From contig JBAWVI010000021.1 in NCBI GenBank assembly GCA_037147375.1, positions 1 through 12,539 of the forward strand: a DNA stretch of 12,539 bases, read 5' to 3'. Made by a program: the position numbers and the translations under genes. Position 1 is the stretch's first letter; each line of letters begins with the position of its first letter. The notes below the pieces were generated by a model. The model was not told the origin of the DNA. It saw nothing but the letters and a program-made list of their open reading frames with translations, and did no database searches. This DNA is from an archaeon (GTDB lineage: Archaea > Iainarchaeota > Iainarchaeia > Iainarchaeales > CSSED10-239). Positions 425 through 10,258 of the stretch are shown here, piece by piece.

Positions 425-979
425 TTATTTTTTCTTTTTCTTATAATCGCGCGTACATCTTTTAAGCCATAACCAATAGAAACCAAGAACAATTATCACA
501 AGGAAGAATCTAAATAAGAAACCATGAAAGAAGCTTGCCCATGAAAGATTAAGTGCAGTTATTAAGTAAGTAGTAAAGCTTATTCTAATTATATTAAATA
601 GAATTACTAAGGGAATTGCAAGAAGTACTCCAATTAATCTCTTCTTCCAAGAAACACTTGTGCTTGCAAGTATTGCAGATGCAAGAAGAGCAAACTCTAG
701 GATACCAGTACATAGAAAATTAATATAGATTGGATAATCAAGAGATGCAATTGTAATAACTGATGCACCATCAATTATATTATATGAAAAAGTAGTAACA
801 ATTCCAAATATATGATTAATTATAAAACTTGAAGTTATTCCAAAAAAATAGTTTATGTAATCATATAAGAAACTATATCCAAGAATAATATAAATAAAAA
901 CAAAAAATAAAATAAAAAGTAAAAGAAAAATAAAACCCTTTCTTAATGTTTGAAATTTCTTAGTTTTATTTTTTCTCAT
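425..979 (-). CDS. Exosortase/archaeosortase-family integral membrane protein (184 aa, short form)
   Basis: Polytopic hydrophobic protein. It carries the ordered family signature residues: Cys in FLCTGILE (family C-[ST]-G motif), Arg in FNIIRISF (N-x-x-R-[IV] motif), and a later His in FFHGFLF. It starts 20 nt after the rps8e stop on the same strand, so it is probably co-transcribed. Confidence 0.65.
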   Translation of the reverse strand: MRKNKTKKFQTLRKGFIFLLLFILFFVFIYIILGYSFLYDYINYFFGITSSFIINHIFGIVTTFSYNIIDGASVITIASLDYPIYINFLCTGILEFALLASAILASTSVSWKKRLIGVLLAIPLVILFNIIRISFTTYLITALNLSWASFFHGFLFRFFLVIIVLGFYWLWLKRCTRDYKKKKK

Positions 980-2022: not shown

Positions 2023-2739
2023 CTAGTCATCTTCTTCTTTGCTATCTCCAAACTTTCTATCAAAAAGATATTTTATTTTATCAGCTTTCTTTGGGCCTAA
2101 ATTTTGAACTTTTTTTAAATCATCAATAGATGCATTTGCAACATTTCTTAAGGTCTTAAATTCTTTTAAAATTGATTTTGCGAGTGTTGGACCAACATCT
2201 GGAAATGATTCAAGAATGAAAAGCTGTCTTTGTGAAAAATTCATTCTTGTTTTTGCAAATCTTAGTTTCATTATATTGTTTCCATTTCCAAGCTGTTCTC
2301 TTTTTGCAATATTAAACAGAAACTCTGCGGTTTCCTTTTGATTTTTTGTAAAAAAGATTGGTAACTTATAATCAAGACCAATTGAGGTAATAAGACCAAT
2401 AAGTGCTTTCTTTTGAATTCTTGAATTATCAGAAAAAAGCTTACCTTGATCTCCCTCTATTATAAGGCCAGGCTTTTTTGCTTGCAAAAGATTTGGAAGT
2501 TGAGAAAATATTCTACCATCAATTATTGATGTTTCTAAATCAGAGATTGTTTTTCTTTCAATTACAACATCATCTGAAAGAATGTAATCTCCAACAGATA
2601 ATTGTTCAAGCTTAATCTTTACAATTGTTTCAAGAGAAGAAAGCTTTTCAAGCTCTACATTAACTTGAGATACACACTCTCGCATATCACAGATAATTGT
2701 AATCATATTATTTTTTGGTTCTTGTTTTGTTTCACTCAT
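2023..2739 (-). CDS. hef: XPF/Hef-type ERCC4 nuclease domain plus C-terminal (HhH)2 domain, encoded as a stand-alone protein (238 aa)
   Basis: ERCC4 signature: IICDMRE ... VGDYILSDDVVIERKTISDLETSIIDGRIFSQ. Tandem helix-hairpin-helix: ILESFPDVGPTLAKSIL ... LKKVQNLGPKKADKI. It starts 6 nt after the stop of the preceding gene. Confidence 0.85.
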   Translation of the reverse strand: MSETKQEPKNNMITIICDMRECVSQVNVELEKLSSLETIVKIKLEQLSVGDYILSDDVVIERKTISDLETSIIDGRIFSQLPNLLQAKKPGLIIEGDQGKLFSDNSRIQKKALIGLITSIGLDYKLPIFFTKNQKETAEFLFNIAKREQLGNGNNIMKLRFAKTRMNFSQRQLFILESFPDVGPTLAKSILKEFKTLRNVANASIDDLKKVQNLGPKKADKIKYLFDRKFGDSKEEDD

Positions 2740-2745
2740 TAAATA

Positions 2746-3228
2746 TCACTGTGTGTCTTTAAGAATAATTGGAGGTGATTTTTCTTTTACAAGTCCACCA
2801 TGGAACTCTCCTCTATAAACTGTTTTTTCTTTGTAATCAATTCTTTCAAATCCAACAAACTTATCAAGAGTTCCTTTTGGTTCACAAAAATATTCAAAAT
2901 CATTATTTTTGAAATATCTTGGGCCTCTGTATGGTTCTTCTTCCTTAACTTGTTTTAATACGTCTTTTAGAAAATCAAATACTTCTTTTGGAGAAATATC
3001 TAGAGATTCAACAAATCCATAATAATTCATACCCCAAATTATTTTTTCATCTTCAAAAACAATTTCGTTTCCAATAAATGGATTGTGACCAAAGTATTTG
3101 TCTGCATATCTAAGATTCGAATTTTCATAAATTAATTGTTTTGCTCCATCTTTACTTATCTTATCAGTTAGTCTTCCTGATGCATAAGTATCTTTTTTTG
3201 CTAAAACCAAAAACTCTCTTAAGTTCAT
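2746..3228 (-). CDS. DUF5680-like protein (160 aa from the ATG at 3228)
   Basis: FLVLAKKDTYASG...LRYADKYFG...IIWGMNYYG...EPYRGP...FEYFC...VYRGEFHGGLV resembles the bacterial DUF5680 domain as I recall it. This is from memory and needs HMM confirmation. The helicase TAA (3245-3247) is immediately followed by AGGAGGG. The ATG at 3228 is 9 nt downstream of that SD. The longer track ORF (to 3297) would overlap the helicase 3' end and has no SD. Confidence 0.55.
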   Translation of the reverse strand: MNLREFLVLAKKDTYASGRLTDKISKDGAKQLIYENSNLRYADKYFGHNPFIGNEIVFEDEKIIWGMNYYGFVESLDISPKEVFDFLKDVLKQVKEEEPYRGPRYFKNNDFEYFCEPKGTLDKFVGFERIDYKEKTVYRGEFHGGLVKEKSPPIILKDTQ

Positions 3229-3244
3229 TAAACACATCCCTCCT

Positions 3245-4861
3245 TTATTTAAAATCAATAAGACTTTTTTGGGTTTTCTTTTTCTTAATTGGTTCATTTA
3301 AATTAAAGTTTTTTAAGGTTCTTTTCATTTTTTTTTCTTTATTTTCTGAAACATAATAGTAATGCTCATCGAGAGTATCTTTGTTTAAGATTAAAACAAC
3401 TTTACCTACGTTAAATCTTCCTGTTCTTCCTCTTCTCTGGATTGATCTTATTTCAGAAGCTACTGCATCATAAAATACAACTAGATCAACTGATGGGATA
3501 TCAAGACCTTCTTCTCCAACTGAAGTGCACACAAGTATATTGTATTCTCCTTCTTTAAACTTAGAGATTGTTTCCATTTGTTCCTTTTGGGAGAGGCCAG
3601 CATCATTTTCTTTGTTTGCTTGTCCAACAAACTTTGTAGCTTTTATTTTTTTATTTCTATTAAGAACAGTAACTAAGTGAGATGCATTGTCTCTAAAGTT
3701 TGTAAAAACTAGAATCTTTGATGATTTATTTTCTTCTAAAAATAAATTAGATATTTCAATTAACTTTGCTTCCTTTGAATAAACTTGGTTTTCAAGAATT
3801 GTAGAATTTAATACTTTTCTAATTTCAATAAATTCTTTTGAGCCAAGCACTTGAGAAAGTGCTTTTGTTCTTTTCTTTTCAGTTCCTTCTGCTTCAAGTT
3901 TGTAAATATAATTTTTGAAAGGAATAATTCCTTGTGTTTCAATTAATTCTTTTGCATGATACATCTTTAGGATGCAAGCTGTAAAAGAGAGAGCTAAGAA
4001 ATTCATATTATTTTTAGATTTAGAAAGACGAGCAATAACTTGAGCTTGAAGCATAATGATTTGTTTCTTTGTATAGTTCTTTCCTATTGGAAAATTTAGT
4101 TTTCTTAAAACACTTATCTTTTGCTCAATAAACTCATCAATAAGTACAACAAGCTTTCTTGAGAACGAATCTAGTTCAGTAAAAATGATTTCAATTTCAG
4201 TTTCATTAATATAATCTTTAACGTCAATATCATTTTCTGTTCTTATTTCAACATGAGATATCTTTAGATTATCCGCAACTTCTCTTATTTTCTTTTTTTC
4301 GCCACCAGGAGATGCAGTTAATCCAAGCCTTTTTGTGTTTTCTGGAAAGAAATTAGATACTTTCGTGTATGAGTAATCTCCAACAGCTCTATGTGCTTCA
4401 TCAAAAATAATTAAATTAAAATCTTTTTCTCTAAGTAATCCATTATCAATATCATTTGCTATTGTTTGGGGTGTTGCACAAATAATTAATCCTTTTTGTA
4501 AATAAATTTGTTCTCTTTTTGCAGGAGTTATTTCTCCAGTTAATAGAATCATGTTTTCTTGCTCAATTGTTAGAAGCTTATCAAGACTTTTCTTGTGCTG
4601 AGAGATAAGTGGTTTAGTGGGAGCTAAGAGAAGAATTGATTTGCTTGAGTCATAAGTAAAAGCAATTAATAGAACAGCTACTATTGTTTTACCAAGACCA
4701 GTTGGTGCAACAACAAGAGTGCTTTGAGTAATAGCTTCAGCTGTTAGAAGCTCTTGATATAATCTTTTTTCAACTTTGTTCTTAGTGATGTATGGATGAA
4801 CTATAAACTTCTCATTTTCATTTGGTTCTAGTTTATTATTTAAAGGCATAATTATCAACAT
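3245..4861 (-). CDS. hef: Hef/FANCM-type SF2 DEAH helicase domain, encoded as a stand-alone protein (538 aa)
   Basis: All SF2 motifs are readable: I VVAPTGLGKT, II IIFDEAHRA, III LGLTASPG, V ILVCTSVGEEGLDIP, VI RSIQRRGRTGR. An inserted helical domain lies between the two RecA lobes, as in Hef. Its length matches the helicase half of the roughly 760-aa euryarchaeal Hef. The true start may be the second ATG (4849, MPLNN...). Confidence 0.85.
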   Translation of the reverse strand: MLIIMPLNNKLEPNENEKFIVHPYITKNKVEKRLYQELLTAEAITQSTLVVAPTGLGKTIVAVLLIAFTYDSSKSILLLAPTKPLISQHKKSLDKLLTIEQENMILLTGEITPAKREQIYLQKGLIICATPQTIANDIDNGLLREKDFNLIIFDEAHRAVGDYSYTKVSNFFPENTKRLGLTASPGGEKKKIREVADNLKISHVEIRTENDIDVKDYINETEIEIIFTELDSFSRKLVVLIDEFIEQKISVLRKLNFPIGKNYTKKQIIMLQAQVIARLSKSKNNMNFLALSFTACILKMYHAKELIETQGIIPFKNYIYKLEAEGTEKKRTKALSQVLGSKEFIEIRKVLNSTILENQVYSKEAKLIEISNLFLEENKSSKILVFTNFRDNASHLVTVLNRNKKIKATKFVGQANKENDAGLSQKEQMETISKFKEGEYNILVCTSVGEEGLDIPSVDLVVFYDAVASEIRSIQRRGRTGRFNVGKVVLILNKDTLDEHYYYVSENKEKKMKRTLKNFNLNEPIKKKKTQKSLIDFK

Positions 4862-4963
4862 CTATTGTAAATAGATATATAATAAACAAAATAAATAGGT
4901 TTCGGGAGGGGGGGTACGTGGCCAAGCATCAATGTACTTAAAATCATTTATGATGTTGGAATT

Positions 4964-5003
4964 TAAAAAAAAATAGAAAAAAGAAAATAGAGATATCTCT
5001 ATT
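4964..5003 (-). terminator. Putative terminator of the rpl1-rpl10-rpl12 operon
   Basis: A perfect 18-nt palindrome, AATAGAGATATCTCTATT (4986-5003), lies 40 nt past the rpl12 stop. On the minus strand it is followed by a T-rich tract (TTCTTTTTTCTATTTTTTTTTAAAT). Confidence 0.55.
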
Positions 5004-5042
5004 CCTTTTGTGTTTCTTTTAGAATTAAAGTTATTTCTAACT

Positions 5043-5362: not shown

Positions 5363-6139
5363 TTATTGTCCCTCTGTGGGGTTTTTAGAAGCAATAGCAC
5401 TTTCAAGTGCTTTTGCTTTAAGCTCTGCCATCATTATCATTGGCTCAATAGTTAAGCTTGTAGCGTAACCCATTTCAACACCAATAGCAATTGCAGATCT
5501 TATTCCTATCATTATTTGTGAATTTATTTCATCAAGATCAACAGATAATACATCTTTCTTGTAGATTAATCCAGCTTCCTTAATGCATACAACATCAAGC
5601 ATTAATTCAATTGGCTTAATTCCAAGCTTTGATAATGTTGAAACAACATCAGAAGTAACAATAGCACCTTTCTTTGTAACAACAGCATCTTCCACAATAT
5701 GTATTGTTGGACCTTTAACCTGTGCCTTTAAACCAACCTTTTTAAGATCAGATAAAGCTGGTCCTGGTGGAAGTCCTGTATCACATTCTTGAATGATTAT
5801 ATCAATTGGTGAAATCATTCCAACCTTTGCTTTTGATTTTGATTTGTTCTTCTTAATTGAAGAATAAATTTCAAATGCATTCTTATTTGATAATATTAAG
5901 ATTGGTTGAGCAGGCAATTCCTTAATCAAATCAGTTTGCTTTTGTGCTTCAAGAACCTTCTTTAGAACATTCTTATTTGTAACTTTTAGTGTTACATCAG
6001 TTAAGTTCTTTTTTAGTTTATGAAGTAAAGCAGCAGGATAAGAAGAAACTGAACCTATTCCAATAACTTTGTATTCCTTAATAAGCTTATCAATTACATC
6101 AAACTGAGAATGTCTCCATTTCTTTAAATGTCTAGTCAT
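5363..6139 (-). CDS. rpl10: 50S ribosomal stalk protein P0 (L10), unusually short at 258 aa and lacking a C-terminal tail
   Basis: HLKKWRHSQFDVIDKLIKEYKVIGIGSVSSYPAALLHKLKK aligns with the archaeal P0 N-terminus. The TGLPPGP motif of the inserted domain is present. Its ATG overlaps the rpl1 TGA (ATGA at 6136-6139). Confidence 0.9.
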   Translation of the reverse strand: MTRHLKKWRHSQFDVIDKLIKEYKVIGIGSVSSYPAALLHKLKKNLTDVTLKVTNKNVLKKVLEAQKQTDLIKELPAQPILILSNKNAFEIYSSIKKNKSKSKAKVGMISPIDIIIQECDTGLPPGPALSDLKKVGLKAQVKGPTIHIVEDAVVTKKGAIVTSDVVSTLSKLGIKPIELMLDVVCIKEAGLIYKKDVLSVDLDEINSQIMIGIRSAIAIGVEMGYATSLTIEPMIMMAELKAKALESAIASKNPTEGQ

Positions 6140-6792
6140 TCGCCACCACCTACTTTCTCTGGCTTACTCATAGTTGTCTTAACATAGAGTGCTCTAACGT
6201 TGTGCTTTCCTGCTGGTAGCTTTTCAATAATTGAATTATAGATTGCCATAACATTTTCAGCAACATCTGGTTTACTCATACTCTTTCTTCCAACTTTTAG
6301 TTGAAGAGCAACAGATGATTTGTTTTTTGTGTTTGATACTTTAATCCTTGAAGTAGCTTGATCAATTATGTTTTTAATTGCTAGTGGATTTCCAGGAGCA
6401 ATAATTGGCATCTTTCCTCTTGGACTTAAAACTTGTCCTAGATATTTACCAATTGTTAGCATAACAGGTCCTTCTGCTAAAAAGACATCGTAATCTGCTG
6501 ACATTTTTTTAACTTCTTTTTTAGAAATTTTTTGGATATCTTCATCCAATATGATTTTATCAACTACACCTTTTAGACCTTCAGCTAAATGTTTATCTTT
6601 AACAAAAACAAGAGACTTAACACTTTGTAAATATGGATGTGGCATATTAACAAAATAATCTACTCTATGTTCTTTGTTTTTAATATTCAAATTTTTGAAA
6701 GTGATAATTAGTTCAATTGATTCATCAAACTTTCTTTCTTTTGCGCCTGAATAGAGTGTATTCAATGCACCTTCAATAACTTTTTTGTCCAA
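6136..6792 (-). CDS. rpl1: 50S ribosomal protein L1, TTG start
   Basis: Typical L1 sequence (FDESIELIITFKNL...VNMPHP...LAEGPVM...LGPRGKMP-like SPRGKMP). An in-frame TAG two codons upstream bounds the ORF. The first usable start is TTG at 6790-6792, 7 nt downstream of GGAGGTG. Confidence 0.93.
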   Translation of the reverse strand: MDKKVIEGALNTLYSGAKERKFDESIELIITFKNLNIKNKEHRVDYFVNMPHPYLQSVKSLVFVKDKHLAEGLKGVVDKIILDEDIQKISKKEVKKMSADYDVFLAEGPVMLTIGKYLGQVLSPRGKMPIIAPGNPLAIKNIIDQATSRIKVSNTKNKSSVALQLKVGRKSMSKPDVAENVMAIYNSIIEKLPAGKHNVRALYVKTTMSKPEKVGGGE

Positions 6793-6917: not shown

Positions 6918-7433
6918 TTATTTCTTCTTATAGATGCCTTTTCTAAAATTATATGCTTTTAATCTTCTTTCTTTTTCTATAGCATCAGTTTCAATTTTTA
7001 ATCTTTCTTTTTTTAAAGCATCAGCTTTCAAAACACTTTCTGCTCTTATTTTATTTAATTGTTTTTCATTTTCTTCTAATTTAAATAAATAGTCTGCTTT
7101 TATTTTTAATTTAGAAAGTAGTTTTGCTTTTCTTGATGGATTTTTTTCTGCCCTATATAAATCCAATATAGCTTTAAATTCAGAATTTAATATTAATGTA
7201 TTAAAGAATGCTTTTTCAGTAAATAAACCAAGTAAAAATGCTTTAGTTCTTGCTTTTTCTAATAACTCGTGCTTGCCACTATTTTGAAAGTCCTTAATCT
7301 TTTTAAACGTATTTTCATTTAATTTTTCCTTAGTTGCTTTTGATAATTTATTTTCACCATTAATTCTACTAATAAATAGTGGTTTTTTTGCTTGTGGTTT
7401 TAAAGTTGGCATTTTAACAAGAATTTTAGGCAT
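6918..7433 (-). CDS. Array paralog P4: lysine-rich coiled-coil protein, unrecognised family (171 aa)
   Basis: The family N-motif begins at Met8 (MPTLKPQAKKPLFISRINGENKLS). C-terminus is RRLKAYNFRKGIYKKK. GGAGAC lies 8 nt upstream of the first ATG (7433). The alternative start is 7412. Confidence 0.8.
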   Translation of the reverse strand: MPKILVKMPTLKPQAKKPLFISRINGENKLSKATKEKLNENTFKKIKDFQNSGKHELLEKARTKAFLLGLFTEKAFFNTLILNSEFKAILDLYRAEKNPSRKAKLLSKLKIKADYLFKLEENEKQLNKIRAESVLKADALKKERLKIETDAIEKERRLKAYNFRKGIYKKK

Positions 7434-7449
7434 ATTAATACGTCTCCAT

Positions 7450-7986
7450 TTATTTACGTTTATAAATTCCTTTTCTGAAATTATATGCTTCTAAACGTTT
7501 TTCTAATAATAAAAATTTCTTTTTTAAGTTCTCTCTTTCTTTTATTGAGCTTACATTTAATGCTTTTTGTTTAGTATTAAAACTTTCTTTTTCAATCTTT
7601 AATTTAGAATTAATTTCATCTAATATTTTTTGGTATTGATTGGATATTGCTCTTTGTTTTTTAATTCTTTCAAATAAGTCAAGTATTTCTTTTGGGTTTC
7701 TGTTACTATCTAAATCTTTTAATCCAGTATCAAGGAGATTATTTAAACTAACATCCATTTTATGTTTTTGATAAGTTATTTCATCAAGATGTGCAGTTAT
7801 TTTATTTGAATTAACATTCAACTCTTTATTTAGTTTTTCTTCTAAAAATCTTTTTTTATTTCCAATTGCTTCTTCACGAGATAGTAAACGTTCATCAATG
7901 TTAGTTAAAGTTTTAATTGATAATTTATTTTTACCTTTTGATCTTGAAATAAATATTGGCTTTTTAATTGGTGGTCTTGTTGGCAT
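7450..7986 (-). CDS. Array paralog P3: lysine-rich coiled-coil protein, unrecognised family (178 aa)
   Basis: N-terminus is MPTRPPIKKPIFISRSKGKNKLS. C-terminus is KRLEAYNFRKGIYKRK. GGAGAT lies 9 nt upstream of the ATG. Confidence 0.8.
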   Translation of the reverse strand: MPTRPPIKKPIFISRSKGKNKLSIKTLTNIDERLLSREEAIGNKKRFLEEKLNKELNVNSNKITAHLDEITYQKHKMDVSLNNLLDTGLKDLDSNRNPKEILDLFERIKKQRAISNQYQKILDEINSKLKIEKESFNTKQKALNVSSIKERENLKKKFLLLEKRLEAYNFRKGIYKRK

Positions 7987-8003
7987 GTGTTTTTCATCTC
8001 CAT

Positions 8004-8465
8004 TTATTTACGCTTGTAAATTCCTTTTCTAAAATTGTATTCTTGTAATCTTCTAAACATTTCATAATATTTCATATAAACAGAACCAAACTCTTCTATT
8101 TTTTTCAGAGACATTTCTGCATTTTTGAATTGTAAACTATTTATTTCTTTATTAATTTCACTTACTTTCTTTCCAAGCTCAAGTAATTTAATGTTAATAT
8201 ATTCTTTATTTTCAAGACCCAAAGCAGCATTTTTTAAAGTTTTTATCTTTAATGTCTCTATAGCCTTAAGTAGTTTATTAAAGTTAATCTTATTTATATT
8301 ACTTTCTTGTAACATATTATAATGAGATTTTATTTTATTAATTTCATTTGCTTCTTTAACATCAAGTTTAGTTAATGTTTTTTTTGAAAGCTTATTAATT
8401 CCATTTTTCCTTTTAATAAAAATTGGATTTTTAATCTTTGGTCTTATTGTAGGCATAATTTTCAT
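8004..8465 (-). CDS. Array paralog P2: lysine-rich coiled-coil protein, unrecognised family (153 aa)
   Basis: The family N-motif begins at Met4 (MPTIRPKIKNPIFIKRKNGINKLS). C-terminus is RRLQEYNFRKGIYKRK. The first ATG overlaps the P1 TGA (ATGA). The alternative start is 8456. Confidence 0.8.
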   Translation of the reverse strand: MKIMPTIRPKIKNPIFIKRKNGINKLSKKTLTKLDVKEANEINKIKSHYNMLQESNINKINFNKLLKAIETLKIKTLKNAALGLENKEYINIKLLELGKKVSEINKEINSLQFKNAEMSLKKIEEFGSVYMKYYEMFRRLQEYNFRKGIYKRK

Positions 8466-8944
8466 TTCCTTCTATATATTCCACCACGTAACTTAACAAG
8501 TTCTCCTGATCTGCCACGTGTCCAATCTAACTTACTTCTGAAGTTATATGCTTTTAATCTTCTTAGTATTTCTTTATATTTTTGTTCAATTTCTGGATTT
8601 CTTAAATCCATTTCCTTTTTTCTATTTTCTTCTATAAGTCTTAATAACTTAGGAATATTTTTAAGATCAGTATCAATTTCTTCAATCTTTTTAGTATATG
8701 CTTCTAATTTTTTTGGATTATCTTTAATAGAATCAAGATTATCAGTATATAATTTTCTTATTTCTTTTAATGATTTAATTTCTTGTAAATCAGATATTTG
8801 TTTATCAAACTTTACATGTATATCATTAAAAGCTTTAGTTTTACGTTCATTAAAATTAGTTTTTGTTTTTCTTGAAAGAATGTTCTTTTTATTTAATCTT
8901 AAAATAAAATTCGGAGACTTAATTGGTTGGCGACTTTGCGGCAT
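8462..8944 (-). CDS. Array paralog P1: lysine-rich coiled-coil protein, unrecognised family, with a C-terminal insertion (160 aa)
   Basis: N-terminus is MPQSRQPIKSPNFILRLNKKNILS. C-terminus is RRLKAYNFR-[SKLDWTRGRSGELVKLRG]-GIYRRK, so the family motif is split by about 17-18 extra residues. Confidence 0.8.
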   Translation of the reverse strand: MPQSRQPIKSPNFILRLNKKNILSRKTKTNFNERKTKAFNDIHVKFDKQISDLQEIKSLKEIRKLYTDNLDSIKDNPKKLEAYTKKIEEIDTDLKNIPKLLRLIEENRKKEMDLRNPEIEQKYKEILRRLKAYNFRSKLDWTRGRSGELVKLRGGIYRRK

Positions 8945-8963
8945 ATAATCTACCTATAATTGT

Positions 8964-8972
8964 TTTATAAAA
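8964..8972 (-). promoter_or_regulatory. Candidate TATA box for the paralog array
   Basis: On the minus strand, TTTATAAAA ends about 19-20 nt upstream of the P1 ATG. This implies a leaderless or very short-leader transcript. It is an AT-rich motif in AT-rich DNA, so support is weak. Confidence 0.3.
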
Positions 8973-9006: not shown

Positions 9007-9861
9007 TTACTTAAGGTATTTAATTGTATTAACAAAGATTGCTTCTGATAATCCTGGATTGTAATTAAAATAAATTACTTTTCCAAGTAATAATGGTTGC
9101 TCAACAATAGCTGGTACAACCTTACCACTTCTTGCATCTTGCAAGTAAGCAATTTCTGTTCCTGTTGGACTAACATCGAATGTAACTGTTTGTATTAATC
9201 CTGCTGCTTCAAGAGCTGGAACTCTATCTATTCCATACATTATCTTATAACCTGCACTCTTACTATCAGACTTTGTAGCATAGATTATTCCATTCATGTT
9301 TAATTGATTCTTACAACTTGGAACACTATAAAGTGTAGGATCACATTTAACTGGTATGATATCTCCAAATGTTGCTGTCCAACCAATAACTGATGCATCT
9401 CCTGGTCTTTCAATACCAGAGTTTAATACAAGTATGAATTTACCACCTGATTGAACATAAGATTTAATTGCTTCACCAACAGTTCTTGTAATTGATTTAT
9501 CTGAAGATAAACTTTGATCTAAGATAATTATATCATAATCCTTTATCATATCTTTTGGATTATGTTGTATTGAATCTATAGTAACTGTTCTTAAGCTTCT
9601 AATAACATCTTTATTTTCAGCATCATTTAGAACTCTAGTAAATTCTGGTGAAGGAGAACCTATAACAAGTACTGCTGCTCCCTTTCCTTCAAATAATGGA
9701 ATTCCTCCTGATAGAACATTTGTTTTAAAAACAATTAACAATATTACACCTATTATAACAATTATAGGGATTATTGTTTCAAGTTTAAGTTTTAAATTGC
9801 TTGAAGACTTTCTCTTTTCAGAAAATTCTTCAGCATCGAAAGATTCTTCTTCGCCTGCCAT
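9007..9861 (-). CDS. Single-pass (N-in, type II-like) membrane protein with an acidic cytoplasmic N-tail and an external alpha/beta domain (284 aa). The domain may have a class I glutamine-amidotransferase-like / DUF4350-like fold.
   Basis: N-tail is MAGEEESFDAEEFSEKRK. One TM helix follows (IIPIIVIIGVILLIVF). Then VLVIGSP...YDIIILDQS...IKSYVQSGGKFILVLNSG resembles the 'YD-hh-hh ... GGxhhhh' pattern of GATase1-like non-catalytic domains. GGTGA lies 6 nt upstream of the ATG. The fold assignment is tentative. Confidence 0.75.
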   Translation of the reverse strand: MAGEEESFDAEEFSEKRKSSSNLKLKLETIIPIIVIIGVILLIVFKTNVLSGGIPLFEGKGAAVLVIGSPSPEFTRVLNDAENKDVIRSLRTVTIDSIQHNPKDMIKDYDIIILDQSLSSDKSITRTVGEAIKSYVQSGGKFILVLNSGIERPGDASVIGWTATFGDIIPVKCDPTLYSVPSCKNQLNMNGIIYATKSDSKSAGYKIMYGIDRVPALEAAGLIQTVTFDVSPTGTEIAYLQDARSGKVVPAIVEQPLLLGKVIYFNYNPGLSEAIFVNTIKYLK

Positions 9862-10090: not shown

Positions 10091-10258
10091 ATGGGTTATT
10101 CACAAATTAGTAAAAAGAGTAAGAAGACATATTACTTACATAGTAAAGGACATTTATTCTTTTTCTCAGGAGATCCTAAAGGTGGAATCGATTTACCAGC
10201 AGGATACAAGACTATTGAGAATGAAAGAACTGGACTTCCAATGATGAAGAAGAAGTAA
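10091..10258 (+). CDS. Small basic protein, 55 aa, not in the supplied ORF track (MGYSQISKKSKKTYYLHSKGHLFFFSGDPKGGIDLPAGYKTIENERTGLPMMKKK)
   Basis: I translated it manually. GGTGAT lies 6 nt upstream of the ATG. The stop sits inside a hairpin plus T-tract terminator. The Gly/Pro-containing composition is protein-like and unlike the AT-driven junk frames. It resembles small 'YYL.SK...FFFS..P.G..DLP.GY...EN.RTGLP.LKK' proteins that I recall from archaeal metagenomes. That resemblance is unverified. Confidence 0.55.
   Translation: MGYSQISKKSKKTYYLHSKGHLFFFSGDPKGGIDLPAGYKTIENERTGLPMMKKK

Follow-up and report, generated by a model that had tools for sequence, protein, structure and literature searches.

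A genus-level orphan family of small basic proteins with conserved ends, encoded in a variable gene array of a DPANN archaeal clade

The subject of this study is a gene array in the window, that is, the whole stretch of DNA analysed (contig JBAWVI010000021.1 of assembly GCA_037147375.1, 12,539 nucleotides (nt)). The window is AT-rich archaeal DNA carrying genes for S8e, CGI-121, a split Hef, rpl12, rpl10, rpl1, enolase and a HAD hydrolase. Between rpl1 (6136-6792) and the gene of a 284-amino-acid (aa) membrane-anchored protein (9007-9861), for which 'mem284' is our working name, lie four co-oriented minus-strand open reading frames (ORFs), called P1 to P4. Sequence comparisons show that they belong to a genus-level orphan family of small basic proteins (147 to 213 aa, isoelectric point (pI) about 10, net charge +19 to +22), which by the searches made is new and has no described relative, the predicted fold class, a helical hairpin, being generic. 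The same comparisons show that the array consists of real coding genes under purifying selection that evolve much faster than their neighbours, and that strains differ in its composition through gene duplication, gene loss and exchange at the gene ends that encode the conserved motifs.

Array layout and conserved ends

The four genes are as follows.

8462-8944 (-), P1 gene, 160 aa including a 17-aa insertion in the C-terminal motif; WCF78_02150, hypothetical protein
8004-8456 (-), P2 gene, 150 aa with the family-conserved MPT as start (153 aa with the upstream ATG at 8465 instead)
7450-7986 (-), P3 gene, 178 aa; WCF78_02140
6918-7412 (-), P4 gene, 164 aa with MPT as start (171 aa, annotated WCF78_02135, with the ATG at 7433 instead)

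A preliminary description, made from the sequence alone, had proposed four homologous ORFs on the minus strand (8462-8944, 8004-8465, 7450-7986 and 6918-7433). They are present at these coordinates, and full-length BLASTP between the paralogs gives E = 1e-6 to 1e-12. Of the lengths then given (160, 153, 178 and 171 aa), those of P1 and P3 stand. P2 and P4 most likely start at the MPT codons at 8456 and 7412, giving 150 and 164 aa, because orthologs are called at 150 and 163 aa; the family-conserved start is Met-Pro, with MPT in most members and MPQ, MPA, MPP or MPI in some. If these starts are used, the ATGA overlap described earlier is probably incidental and not the real P1/P2 junction, the spacer there being 5 nt. 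The 16- to 17-nt spacers of the same description are found at the two other junctions, which, as it had also noted, have TAAATGGAGA in common:

7987-8003 (-), P2/P3 spacer, 17 nt with a GGAG Shine-Dalgarno-like element
7434-7449 (-), P3/P4 spacer, with the same TAAATGGAGA junction as P2/P3

Conservation had been said to concentrate at the two ends, with a centre that is hard to align, and this is borne out. When the first 27 residues and the C-terminal motif are removed from P1 to P4, BLASTP gives no significant pair (best E = 0.04), and 21 of the 23 invariant columns of the four-way alignment fall within the first 27 or the last 16 aligned residues. Eleven columns are invariant across 18 sequences whose centres cannot be aligned: I, R, N and T in the N-terminal part, and R, L, Y, F, G, I and Y in the C-terminal part. 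The N-termini (MPTRPPIKKP...) are basic and Pro-rich, and neither a signal peptide nor a hydrophobic stretch was found at the N-termini of the family. The conserved segments are listed below, 'head' and 'apex' referring to the predicted fold.

7909-7986 (-), N-terminal head motif of P3, MPTRPPIKKPIFISRSKGKNKLSIKT; net charge +8, predicted beta-hairpin at residues 13-16/19-22
8864-8944, 8376-8456 and 7332-7412 (-), its equivalents in P1, P2 and P4
7450-7500 (-), C-terminal head motif of P3, KRLEAYNFRKGIYKRK, plus stop; repeat families D1, D3 and D4
8004-8054, 6918-6968, and 8537-8566 plus 8462-8482 (-), its equivalents in P2, P4 and P1
8483-8536 (-), P1-specific segment SKLDWTRGRSGELVKLRG; extra beta strands predicted with low confidence
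7690-7698 (-), apex turn N97-P98-K99 of P3
8711-8719 (NPK), 7134-7142 (NPS) and 8208-8219 (GLEN) (-), its equivalents in P1, P4 and P2

The central NP(K/S) landmark reported for three of the four proteins is thus that of P1, P3 and P4. The C-terminal motif does end at the stop codon in P2 to P4, as reported; in P1 it is interrupted by the 18 residues of SKLDWTRGRSGELVKLRG, which stand for a single K between YNFR and GIY (a net insertion of 17 aa) and are conserved in the P1 orthologs (P0009, P0011 and that of locus L017), and the distant members P0016, P0018 and P0019 extend past GIYK.

A TATA-box-like element read from the sequence (TTTATAAAA, 8963-8971, minus strand) lies 18 nt upstream of the P1 ATG, which suggests that the array has a promoter of its own and that its first cistron is leaderless or near-leaderless. 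At the other end, 125 nt with TATA-like sequences lie between P4 and rpl1. On the plus strand, the ORFs that cross the array are short and F/L/S-rich, being shadows of its K/E-rich frames. Scans of the window gave no Rfam family and no tRNA.

Coding status and selection

As reference for the ratio of non-synonymous to synonymous substitution rates (dN/dS) we used L001, a strain whose flanking DNA is 95 to 97% identical to the window. The ratio is 0.13 for P2, 0.16 for P3 and 0.21 for P4, and 0.01 to 0.09 for the flanking genes; computed per segment, as the preliminary description had proposed, it is 0.17 to 0.22 for the centre alone. The dN itself amounts to 0.05 to 0.12 in the array versus 0.0015 to 0.023 in the flanking genes, that is, about 2-fold to ~80-fold higher, and is 9 to 20 times that of L1 and 10 to 23 times that of L10. 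Inside the motifs, synonymous differences between paralogs are 0.3 to 0.8, which means that protein-level selection, and not recent copying, maintains the termini. Recent gene conversion, for which the preliminary description had proposed a test, is rejected on these values as the reason why the termini of the window's copies are conserved; in the 163a/163b pair of L001, however, the N-terminus and the junction do look converted.

Might the array instead be made of decaying or meaningless ORFs, K/N/I/E-rich and seemingly helical because the DNA is AT-rich, and alike only through recent duplication? The very low guanine plus cytosine (GC) content, the orphan status of the family and one truncated copy, in locus L014, would fit. 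Against this stand the dN/dS values of the orthologs, the 11 columns invariant across 18 sequences with motif synonymous sites near saturation, the frames kept intact in at least eight distinct loci and the Shine-Dalgarno-like elements at the junctions. We regard this explanation as largely refuted and scarcely tenable.

Distribution of the family

A profile of the four proteins retrieved 14 proteins among 5.8 billion clusters, all unannotated: WCF78_02135-02150 plus proteins from JGI and ENA metagenomes. An exhaustive hidden Markov model (HMM) scan of 1.84 billion representative proteins gave 11 clusters, all in one narrow DPANN archaeal clade related to Iainarchaeota/Diapherotrites. A degenerate DNA pattern of the C-terminal motif, also used on GTDB, IMG/VR and metagenome contigs, found no true member in 185,579 GTDB species representatives and 11 loci in metagenome contigs. 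Four GTDB matches to the pattern, in bacterial metagenome-assembled genomes, were rejected as chance, all being out of frame and containing stop codons. The L10 protein encoded next to the array has its best named match in 'Candidatus ainarchaeum sp.' (68%), followed by Diapherotrites (~40%), which places the host among the DPANN archaea, in the Iainarchaeota/Diapherotrites group. Both the restriction and the size of the family count in favour of the orphan-family reading.

No match among described families and structures

That the family is an unrecognised one, as first proposed, agrees with every library and structure search made: profile matches to a characterised family, which had been named as the finding that would speak against novelty, did not appear. 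Pfam, NCBIfam, PHROGs and PADLOC scans of the four proteins, and of the long forms and accessory ORFs of related loci, yielded nothing beyond coiled-coil noise below threshold; constructs reduced to the head had no Pfam match, even at E <= 10; and an HMM search of PDB sequences again returned coiled-coil noise only (best E = 0.038). The NCBIfam Rad50 match (E = 0.0015, 16 bits versus a cutoff of 454) is confined to the rod, as are two weak PADLOC matches, of P4 to AbiEii (E = 7e-4) and of P0019 to MTase_II (E = 0.0011), neither of them common to the other paralogs. No array protein matched a ribosomal protein family in Pfam or NCBIfam, whereas the neighbouring L1, S8e, L10 and L12 matched strongly. 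Searches of GenBank phages and PLSDB plasmids by tblastn gave no match, the degenerate motif scan of IMG/VR gave 0 matches, and we found no description of such a family in the literature. With Foldseek, neither the P1 and P3 models against PDB nor P3 against BFVD gave a match at E <= 0.001; the best-ranked entries are hairpins of a generic kind (EmrA, HlyD, the Smc5/6 arm, Vipp1, Rad50/SMC heads with stubs, the SerRS arm and CdvB).

Insertion site and turnover of the array

In the carriers, whose mem284 proteins are at least 86% identical, the array lies between mem284 and rpl1. Its content is as follows (lengths in aa).

Window and L017: 160-150-178-164
L001: orf82 + 208-150-178-163a-163b
L020: orf82 + 208-150-178-163b
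L004/L015: orf82 + 208-150-chimera
L014: truncated P1-150-163a
L006/L028: 167-205-147
L018/L003: one long form (199-213 aa, with an N-terminal extension of ~85 aa), a helical accessory ORF before it
L022: one long form, a helical accessory ORF before it

Three relatives, L027, L024 and L025 (mem284 74%, 67% and 55% identical), keep the order enolase-orf55-mem284-rpl1-rpl10-rpl12 without the array, with a gap of 120 to 165 nt at its position. Downstream, the Hef, nuclease and S8e genes are likewise retained in L024 and L025; L027 differs after rpl12. It follows that the array was inserted recently, at roughly the genus level, and the insertion site, not an operon partnership, best explains why it neighbours the ribosomal stalk operon. 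A divergent member with a C-terminal extension, P0019, sits elsewhere, beside a PCC/PPC-domain gene. A functional link to rpl1 or the ribosome drawn from adjacency thus loses its footing; the comparison corrects a synteny inference that was attractive but wrong.

A ribosomal role is one of the alternatives: the proteins may be lineage-specific ribosome-associated factors whose head binds rRNA near L1 or the P stalk, and the array would lie beside rpl1-rpl10-rpl12 because of co-regulation with them. The array is directly upstream of these genes and on the same strand in every carrier but one locus, and its cationic, aromatic-rich head resembles the tails of many rRNA-binding proteins. However, the mem284-rpl1 junction is kept without the array in related genomes, the P4-rpl1 gap has TATA-like sequences of its own, and P0019 adjoins the PCC/PPC-domain gene instead. 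Unlike ribosomal proteins, the family is not clade-wide (it is absent from L024, L025 and L027) and varies in copy content, paralogs being gained, lost and truncated among strains with 99% identical L10; its dN far exceeds that of L1 and L10, and it matches no ribosomal-protein family. We hold a role of this kind to be rather improbable.

Array content thus differs between near-identical strains (L10 proteins 99% identical), in line with the earlier proposal that the family diversified in situ, and the points of exchange lie in the gene ends that encode the motifs. Homology between the window and L001 ends upstream of P1 and resumes exactly at the P1 GIY codons, and P1 and 'orf82 + 208' are thus alternative cassettes. 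In L004, the third gene joins the first 18 residues of P3 to the body of P4, the P3 body being missing. In L001, 163a and 163b have an identical upstream junction and identical first 17 residues, and are 50% identical overall.

Such turnover raises the possibility that the genes are conflict-related or mobile cargo, brought by an unsampled virus or plasmid or engaged, as effector or anti-defence genes of a symbiont, in an arms race. The insertion relative to sister genomes, the GC content of the array segment (22 to 24% versus 29 to 35% in neighbouring genes), the raised dN and the exchange of cassettes between strains would all be expected under this scenario, and so would the position of the stand-alone member near Fic, Bro-N and Imm5-like genes and the uptake, in relatives, of bAvd and toxin-antitoxin genes by the nearby rpl12-Hef gap. 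On the other hand, the array in the window comes without an integrase, a transposase, an att-like flanking repeat or a tRNA; IMG/VR (by motif), PHROGs, BFVD, GenBank phages, plasmids and PADLOC are without a match; pervasive positive selection is not evident from the dN/dS of the centre; and a signal peptide is absent. We consider a conflict-related origin unlikely.

Several observations on individual loci may be added. The P1 ortholog of L014 (867-1148, minus strand) is truncated at 93 aa, ending ...KKLEILILILKISQNY; the cause is a frameshift that made it a pseudogene, or else a mistake in the assembly. The accessory ORFs before the long forms in L018 (2711-3142, minus strand, 143 aa) and L022 (2540-2845, plus strand, 101 aa) are homologous (E = 6e-19), and orf82 of L001 (5688-5936, plus strand) is not clearly related to them. 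A resemblance between the accessory-ORF C-terminus (DPKTRKTMQKF) and the P0019 extension (NPKTRAMLQKM), with E = 0.008 over 17 aa, was too weak to use. P0019 stands alone in L007 (1-14215) among Imm5-like, Fic, Bro-N, KTSC and radical-SAM genes, a region that looks like a variable or accessory island; L007 and the array-carrying contig L028 come from one sample, ERZ27248956.

A predicted helical hairpin with a single head

AlphaFold2 monomer models were made for P1 and P3 (14 sequences in the P3 alignment). The P3 model has a mean predicted local distance difference test (pLDDT) score of 84 and consists of strands 13-16/19-22, a helix at 24-94, a turn at NPK, a second helix at 98-167 and a poorly defined short tail. 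The P1 model (pLDDT 70) follows the same plan, its C-terminal motif and insertion forming four short strands of low confidence. Using the conserved N and C motifs as anchors (rod length 97 to 137 residues), we found a Pro or Gly at most 4.5 residues from the rod midpoint in 9 of 12 subfamilies (permutation p = 1.6e-4). The lengths of the N- and C-terminal arms covary (49/51, 52/55, 71/65, 64/57, 47/49, 48/48 and 57/54), and insertions and deletions are therefore accepted symmetrically, as expected if the arms pack together.

The helix breaker at the midpoint and the AlphaFold models together argue for a folded-back hairpin in which the two conserved termini make one head, in place of the two docking termini linked by a rod that had been pictured before. 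There is moderate support for each protein being a long antiparallel alpha-helical hairpin with arms of ~47 to 71 residues (roughly 7 to 10 nm). The N-terminal beta-hairpin and the C-terminal motif (YNFR-KG-IYK), itself probably a second beta-hairpin, are predicted to meet in one small head, and the position of the P1 insertion, in the KG turn of the would-be C-terminal hairpin, is consistent with a single head. The head comprises 27 + 16 residues (43) with a net charge of +12 to +16, versus +4 to +10 for rods of 100 to 137 aa; most of the net positive charge is thus predicted to sit in the head, and so are the invariant aromatic residues, the invariant set including F/Y/F/Y as well as R, R and N. 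As to the heptad-like coiled coil previously assigned to the centre, it is helical in AlphaFold, on which the helicity of the rods rests, but heptads are detected at p < 0.05 in 2 of 8 arms only.

Several known systems share parts of this design. Skp, a protein of about 17 kDa and pI about 10, has N-terminal beta strands, an alpha-helical hairpin and returning C-terminal beta strands in its crystal structures; the array proteins are similar in size and pI, and their predicted order of elements is alike, with C-terminal strands at pLDDT ~46-67. They differ from Skp/OmpH (PF03938) in having no Pfam hit to it at E <= 1, no signal peptide, an archaeal host without an outer membrane, and a much smaller (about 43 aa), highly cationic head. 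Aligning family profile A3 to a hand-entered E. coli Skp sequence with hhalign gave a probability of 0.1%, and no Skp chain is among the best 50 Foldseek matches. Archaeal prefoldin alpha/beta is likewise small, with coiled-coil tentacles and beta-hairpins, and several paralogs would suit a hetero-oligomer; its beta-hairpins, however, are central and its termini lie at the tentacle tip, whereas the array proteins are predicted to have beta structure at the termini and a central Pro/Gly turn, and no PF02996 or PF01920 match was found in them.

From these likenesses one may imagine an oligomeric 'jellyfish' holdase, in which head strands of several paralogs form a small barrel and basic hairpins clamp unfolded or nascent clients, as Skp or prefoldin do. 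The predicted beta, alpha-hairpin, beta order and the several putatively co-transcribed paralogs speak for it. The sequence and profile comparisons just given do not, nor does Foldseek, in which neither Skp nor prefoldin is among the best 50 matches and none reaches E <= 0.001. Moreover, a barrel for oligomerisation would need far less positive charge than the head carries, paralogs encoded together can differ in arm length by as much as some 20 residues, and paralog number varies from 1 to 5 between strains. A holdase is, to our mind, an unlikely solution.

The long alpha1-alpha2-type hairpin of ESCRT-III/PspA/Vipp1 proteins gives the best Foldseek template modelling (TM) scores (0.46 to 0.59, with E of 0.4 to 1.2, which is not significant), Vipp1/PspA filaments being listed and, for P1, CdvB of S. 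islandicus. On this basis the hairpins could pack into a membrane-remodelling or cytoskeletal polymer, as filaments or coats on acidic membranes, in the manner of ESCRT-III/PspA/Vipp1 or of filament proteins rich in coiled coil, with the basic head as anchor and the membrane-anchored mem284 encoded just upstream. Yet all such matches (E >= 0.4) amount to generic hairpin similarity, and neither Snf7 (PF03357) nor PspA_IM30 (PF04012) is matched in Pfam. The array proteins are predicted to have two long helices only, ending 10 to 15 residues after the second one without alpha3-alpha5; the beta head is absent from ESCRT-III; and there is no amphipathic N-terminal helix, the N-terminus being Pro-rich and predicted beta. 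Finally, mem284 is kept in array-free relatives, and the two are thus not an obligate pair. A polymer has in our estimation a slim chance of being the answer.

SMC/Rad50 proteins likewise have an antiparallel coiled coil at whose base the N- and C-termini form a head, a shared design that is not evidence of homology; Rad50/SMC heads with stubs are the top P1 Foldseek rows (E 0.23 to 0.44) and the Smc5/6 arm is listed for P3, none of them significant. The array proteins, by contrast, lack an ATPase head, Walker/signature motifs (no GxxGxGK[ST]), a hinge and a zinc hook, and are about ten times smaller. Periplasmic adaptors (EmrA, HlyD, MacA, LipC) have a helical hairpin between two beta half-domains, and EmrA is the top P3 row (E 0.077, not significant), but the array family is cytoplasmic and archaeal, and has neither lipoyl/beta-barrel domains nor a membrane anchor.

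A possible role for the head

The distribution of cationic charge makes a polyanion a plausible partner. We favour, tentatively and with somewhat less than an even chance of being right, the reading that function resides in the head, which would bind a polyanion, most likely nucleic acid, and that the rod is a projection of variable length constrained mainly to helicity and symmetry. The head would dock on its polyanionic partner, most likely RNA or DNA; the rod would act as a loosely constrained projecting spacer or interaction arm that mainly needs to stay helical and symmetric; and the paralogs would be partly redundant versions differing in rod length and surface.

A number of points weigh against this reading or the fold beneath it. 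The alignment behind the AlphaFold models holds only the 14 sequences mentioned; the last two 10-residue blocks of P1 have pLDDT 46 to 58 (the two before them ~67 to 71), and the last block of P3 has 49. An extended parallel dimer would also be compatible with the monomer prediction. Heptad periodicity is weak, with 2 of 8 helix arms beating shuffles at p < 0.05, and lysine richness is partly a by-product of the low GC of the array segment. No nucleic-acid-binding family or fold was matched in Pfam, PDB sequences or Foldseek. Single paralogs are dispensable, P1 being absent from L001, P3 from L004 and L014, and the long form from the window; the role of the array is therefore redundant or accessory.

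A bolder version of the polyanion-binding reading, speculative and unlikely to be right, would see in the array a kit of graded rods (arms of ~50, 54, 61 and 68 residues; 7 to 10 nm) that share one cationic beta 'plug' for a common polyanionic site (ribosome, nucleoid or DPANN host-contact apparatus), cassettes being swapped within the plug-coding ends. If true, this would mean a new nucleic-acid-binding module and a new way to diversify a projecting surface; conflict of symbiont with host, or with viruses, might be the driving force.

A large share of the genes of DPANN archaea is unannotated, and orphan families are common in them. The array offers a clean and tractable orphan case, born within a genus-level clade and already under purifying selection, in which the mode of evolution (duplication, loss and cassette exchange at conserved ends) can be seen. 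Should the head prove to be a new nucleic-acid- or ribosome-binding module, it would add a small binding domain; should the genes be conflict-related, they would point to otherwise invisible biology of uncultured symbiotic archaea.

Other genes in the window and related loci

The gap between rpl12 and Hef is a second variable spot, empty in the window (4862-5042). In L001 (10652-12871) it contains genes of 443 aa and 130 aa and a bAvd-like gene (PF22296/23S_rRNA_IVP; bAvd is the accessory protein of diversity-generating retroelements), and in L006 (8016-8638) an RHH_12 + YafQ/ParE toxin-antitoxin pair.

Hef itself is split in the window (2023-4861, minus strand): its helicase is encoded at 3245-4861 and its ERCC4/HhH nuclease at 2023-2739, with a DUF5680 gene (2746-3297) between them that overlaps the 3' end of the helicase ORF. 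L024 is arranged alike, and L025 has two small unannotated ORFs instead of DUF5680.

The mem284 protein (9007-9861, minus strand) carries a transmembrane helix at its N-terminus, and its other domain matches only Glyco_hydro_42M (glutamine-amidotransferase-like), and that weakly (E = 0.017). With 77 homolog clusters, all of unnamed archaeal or Diapherotrites proteins, it is a conserved lineage-specific protein. A 184-aa polytopic membrane protein at 425-979 (minus strand) has a sub-threshold match to exosortase/archaeosortase EpsH (E = 2e-4, 21 bits versus a cutoff of 25.7), which covers the C-terminal part of the profile only. Between enolase and mem284, a 55-aa ORF (10091-10258, plus strand), MGYSQISKKSKKTYYLHSKGHLFFFSGDPKGGIDLPAGYKTIENERTGLPMMKKK, is without a Pfam hit; it was not detected in L025, is 70 to 100% conserved in most of the related loci examined, and is likely to be a real small protein.

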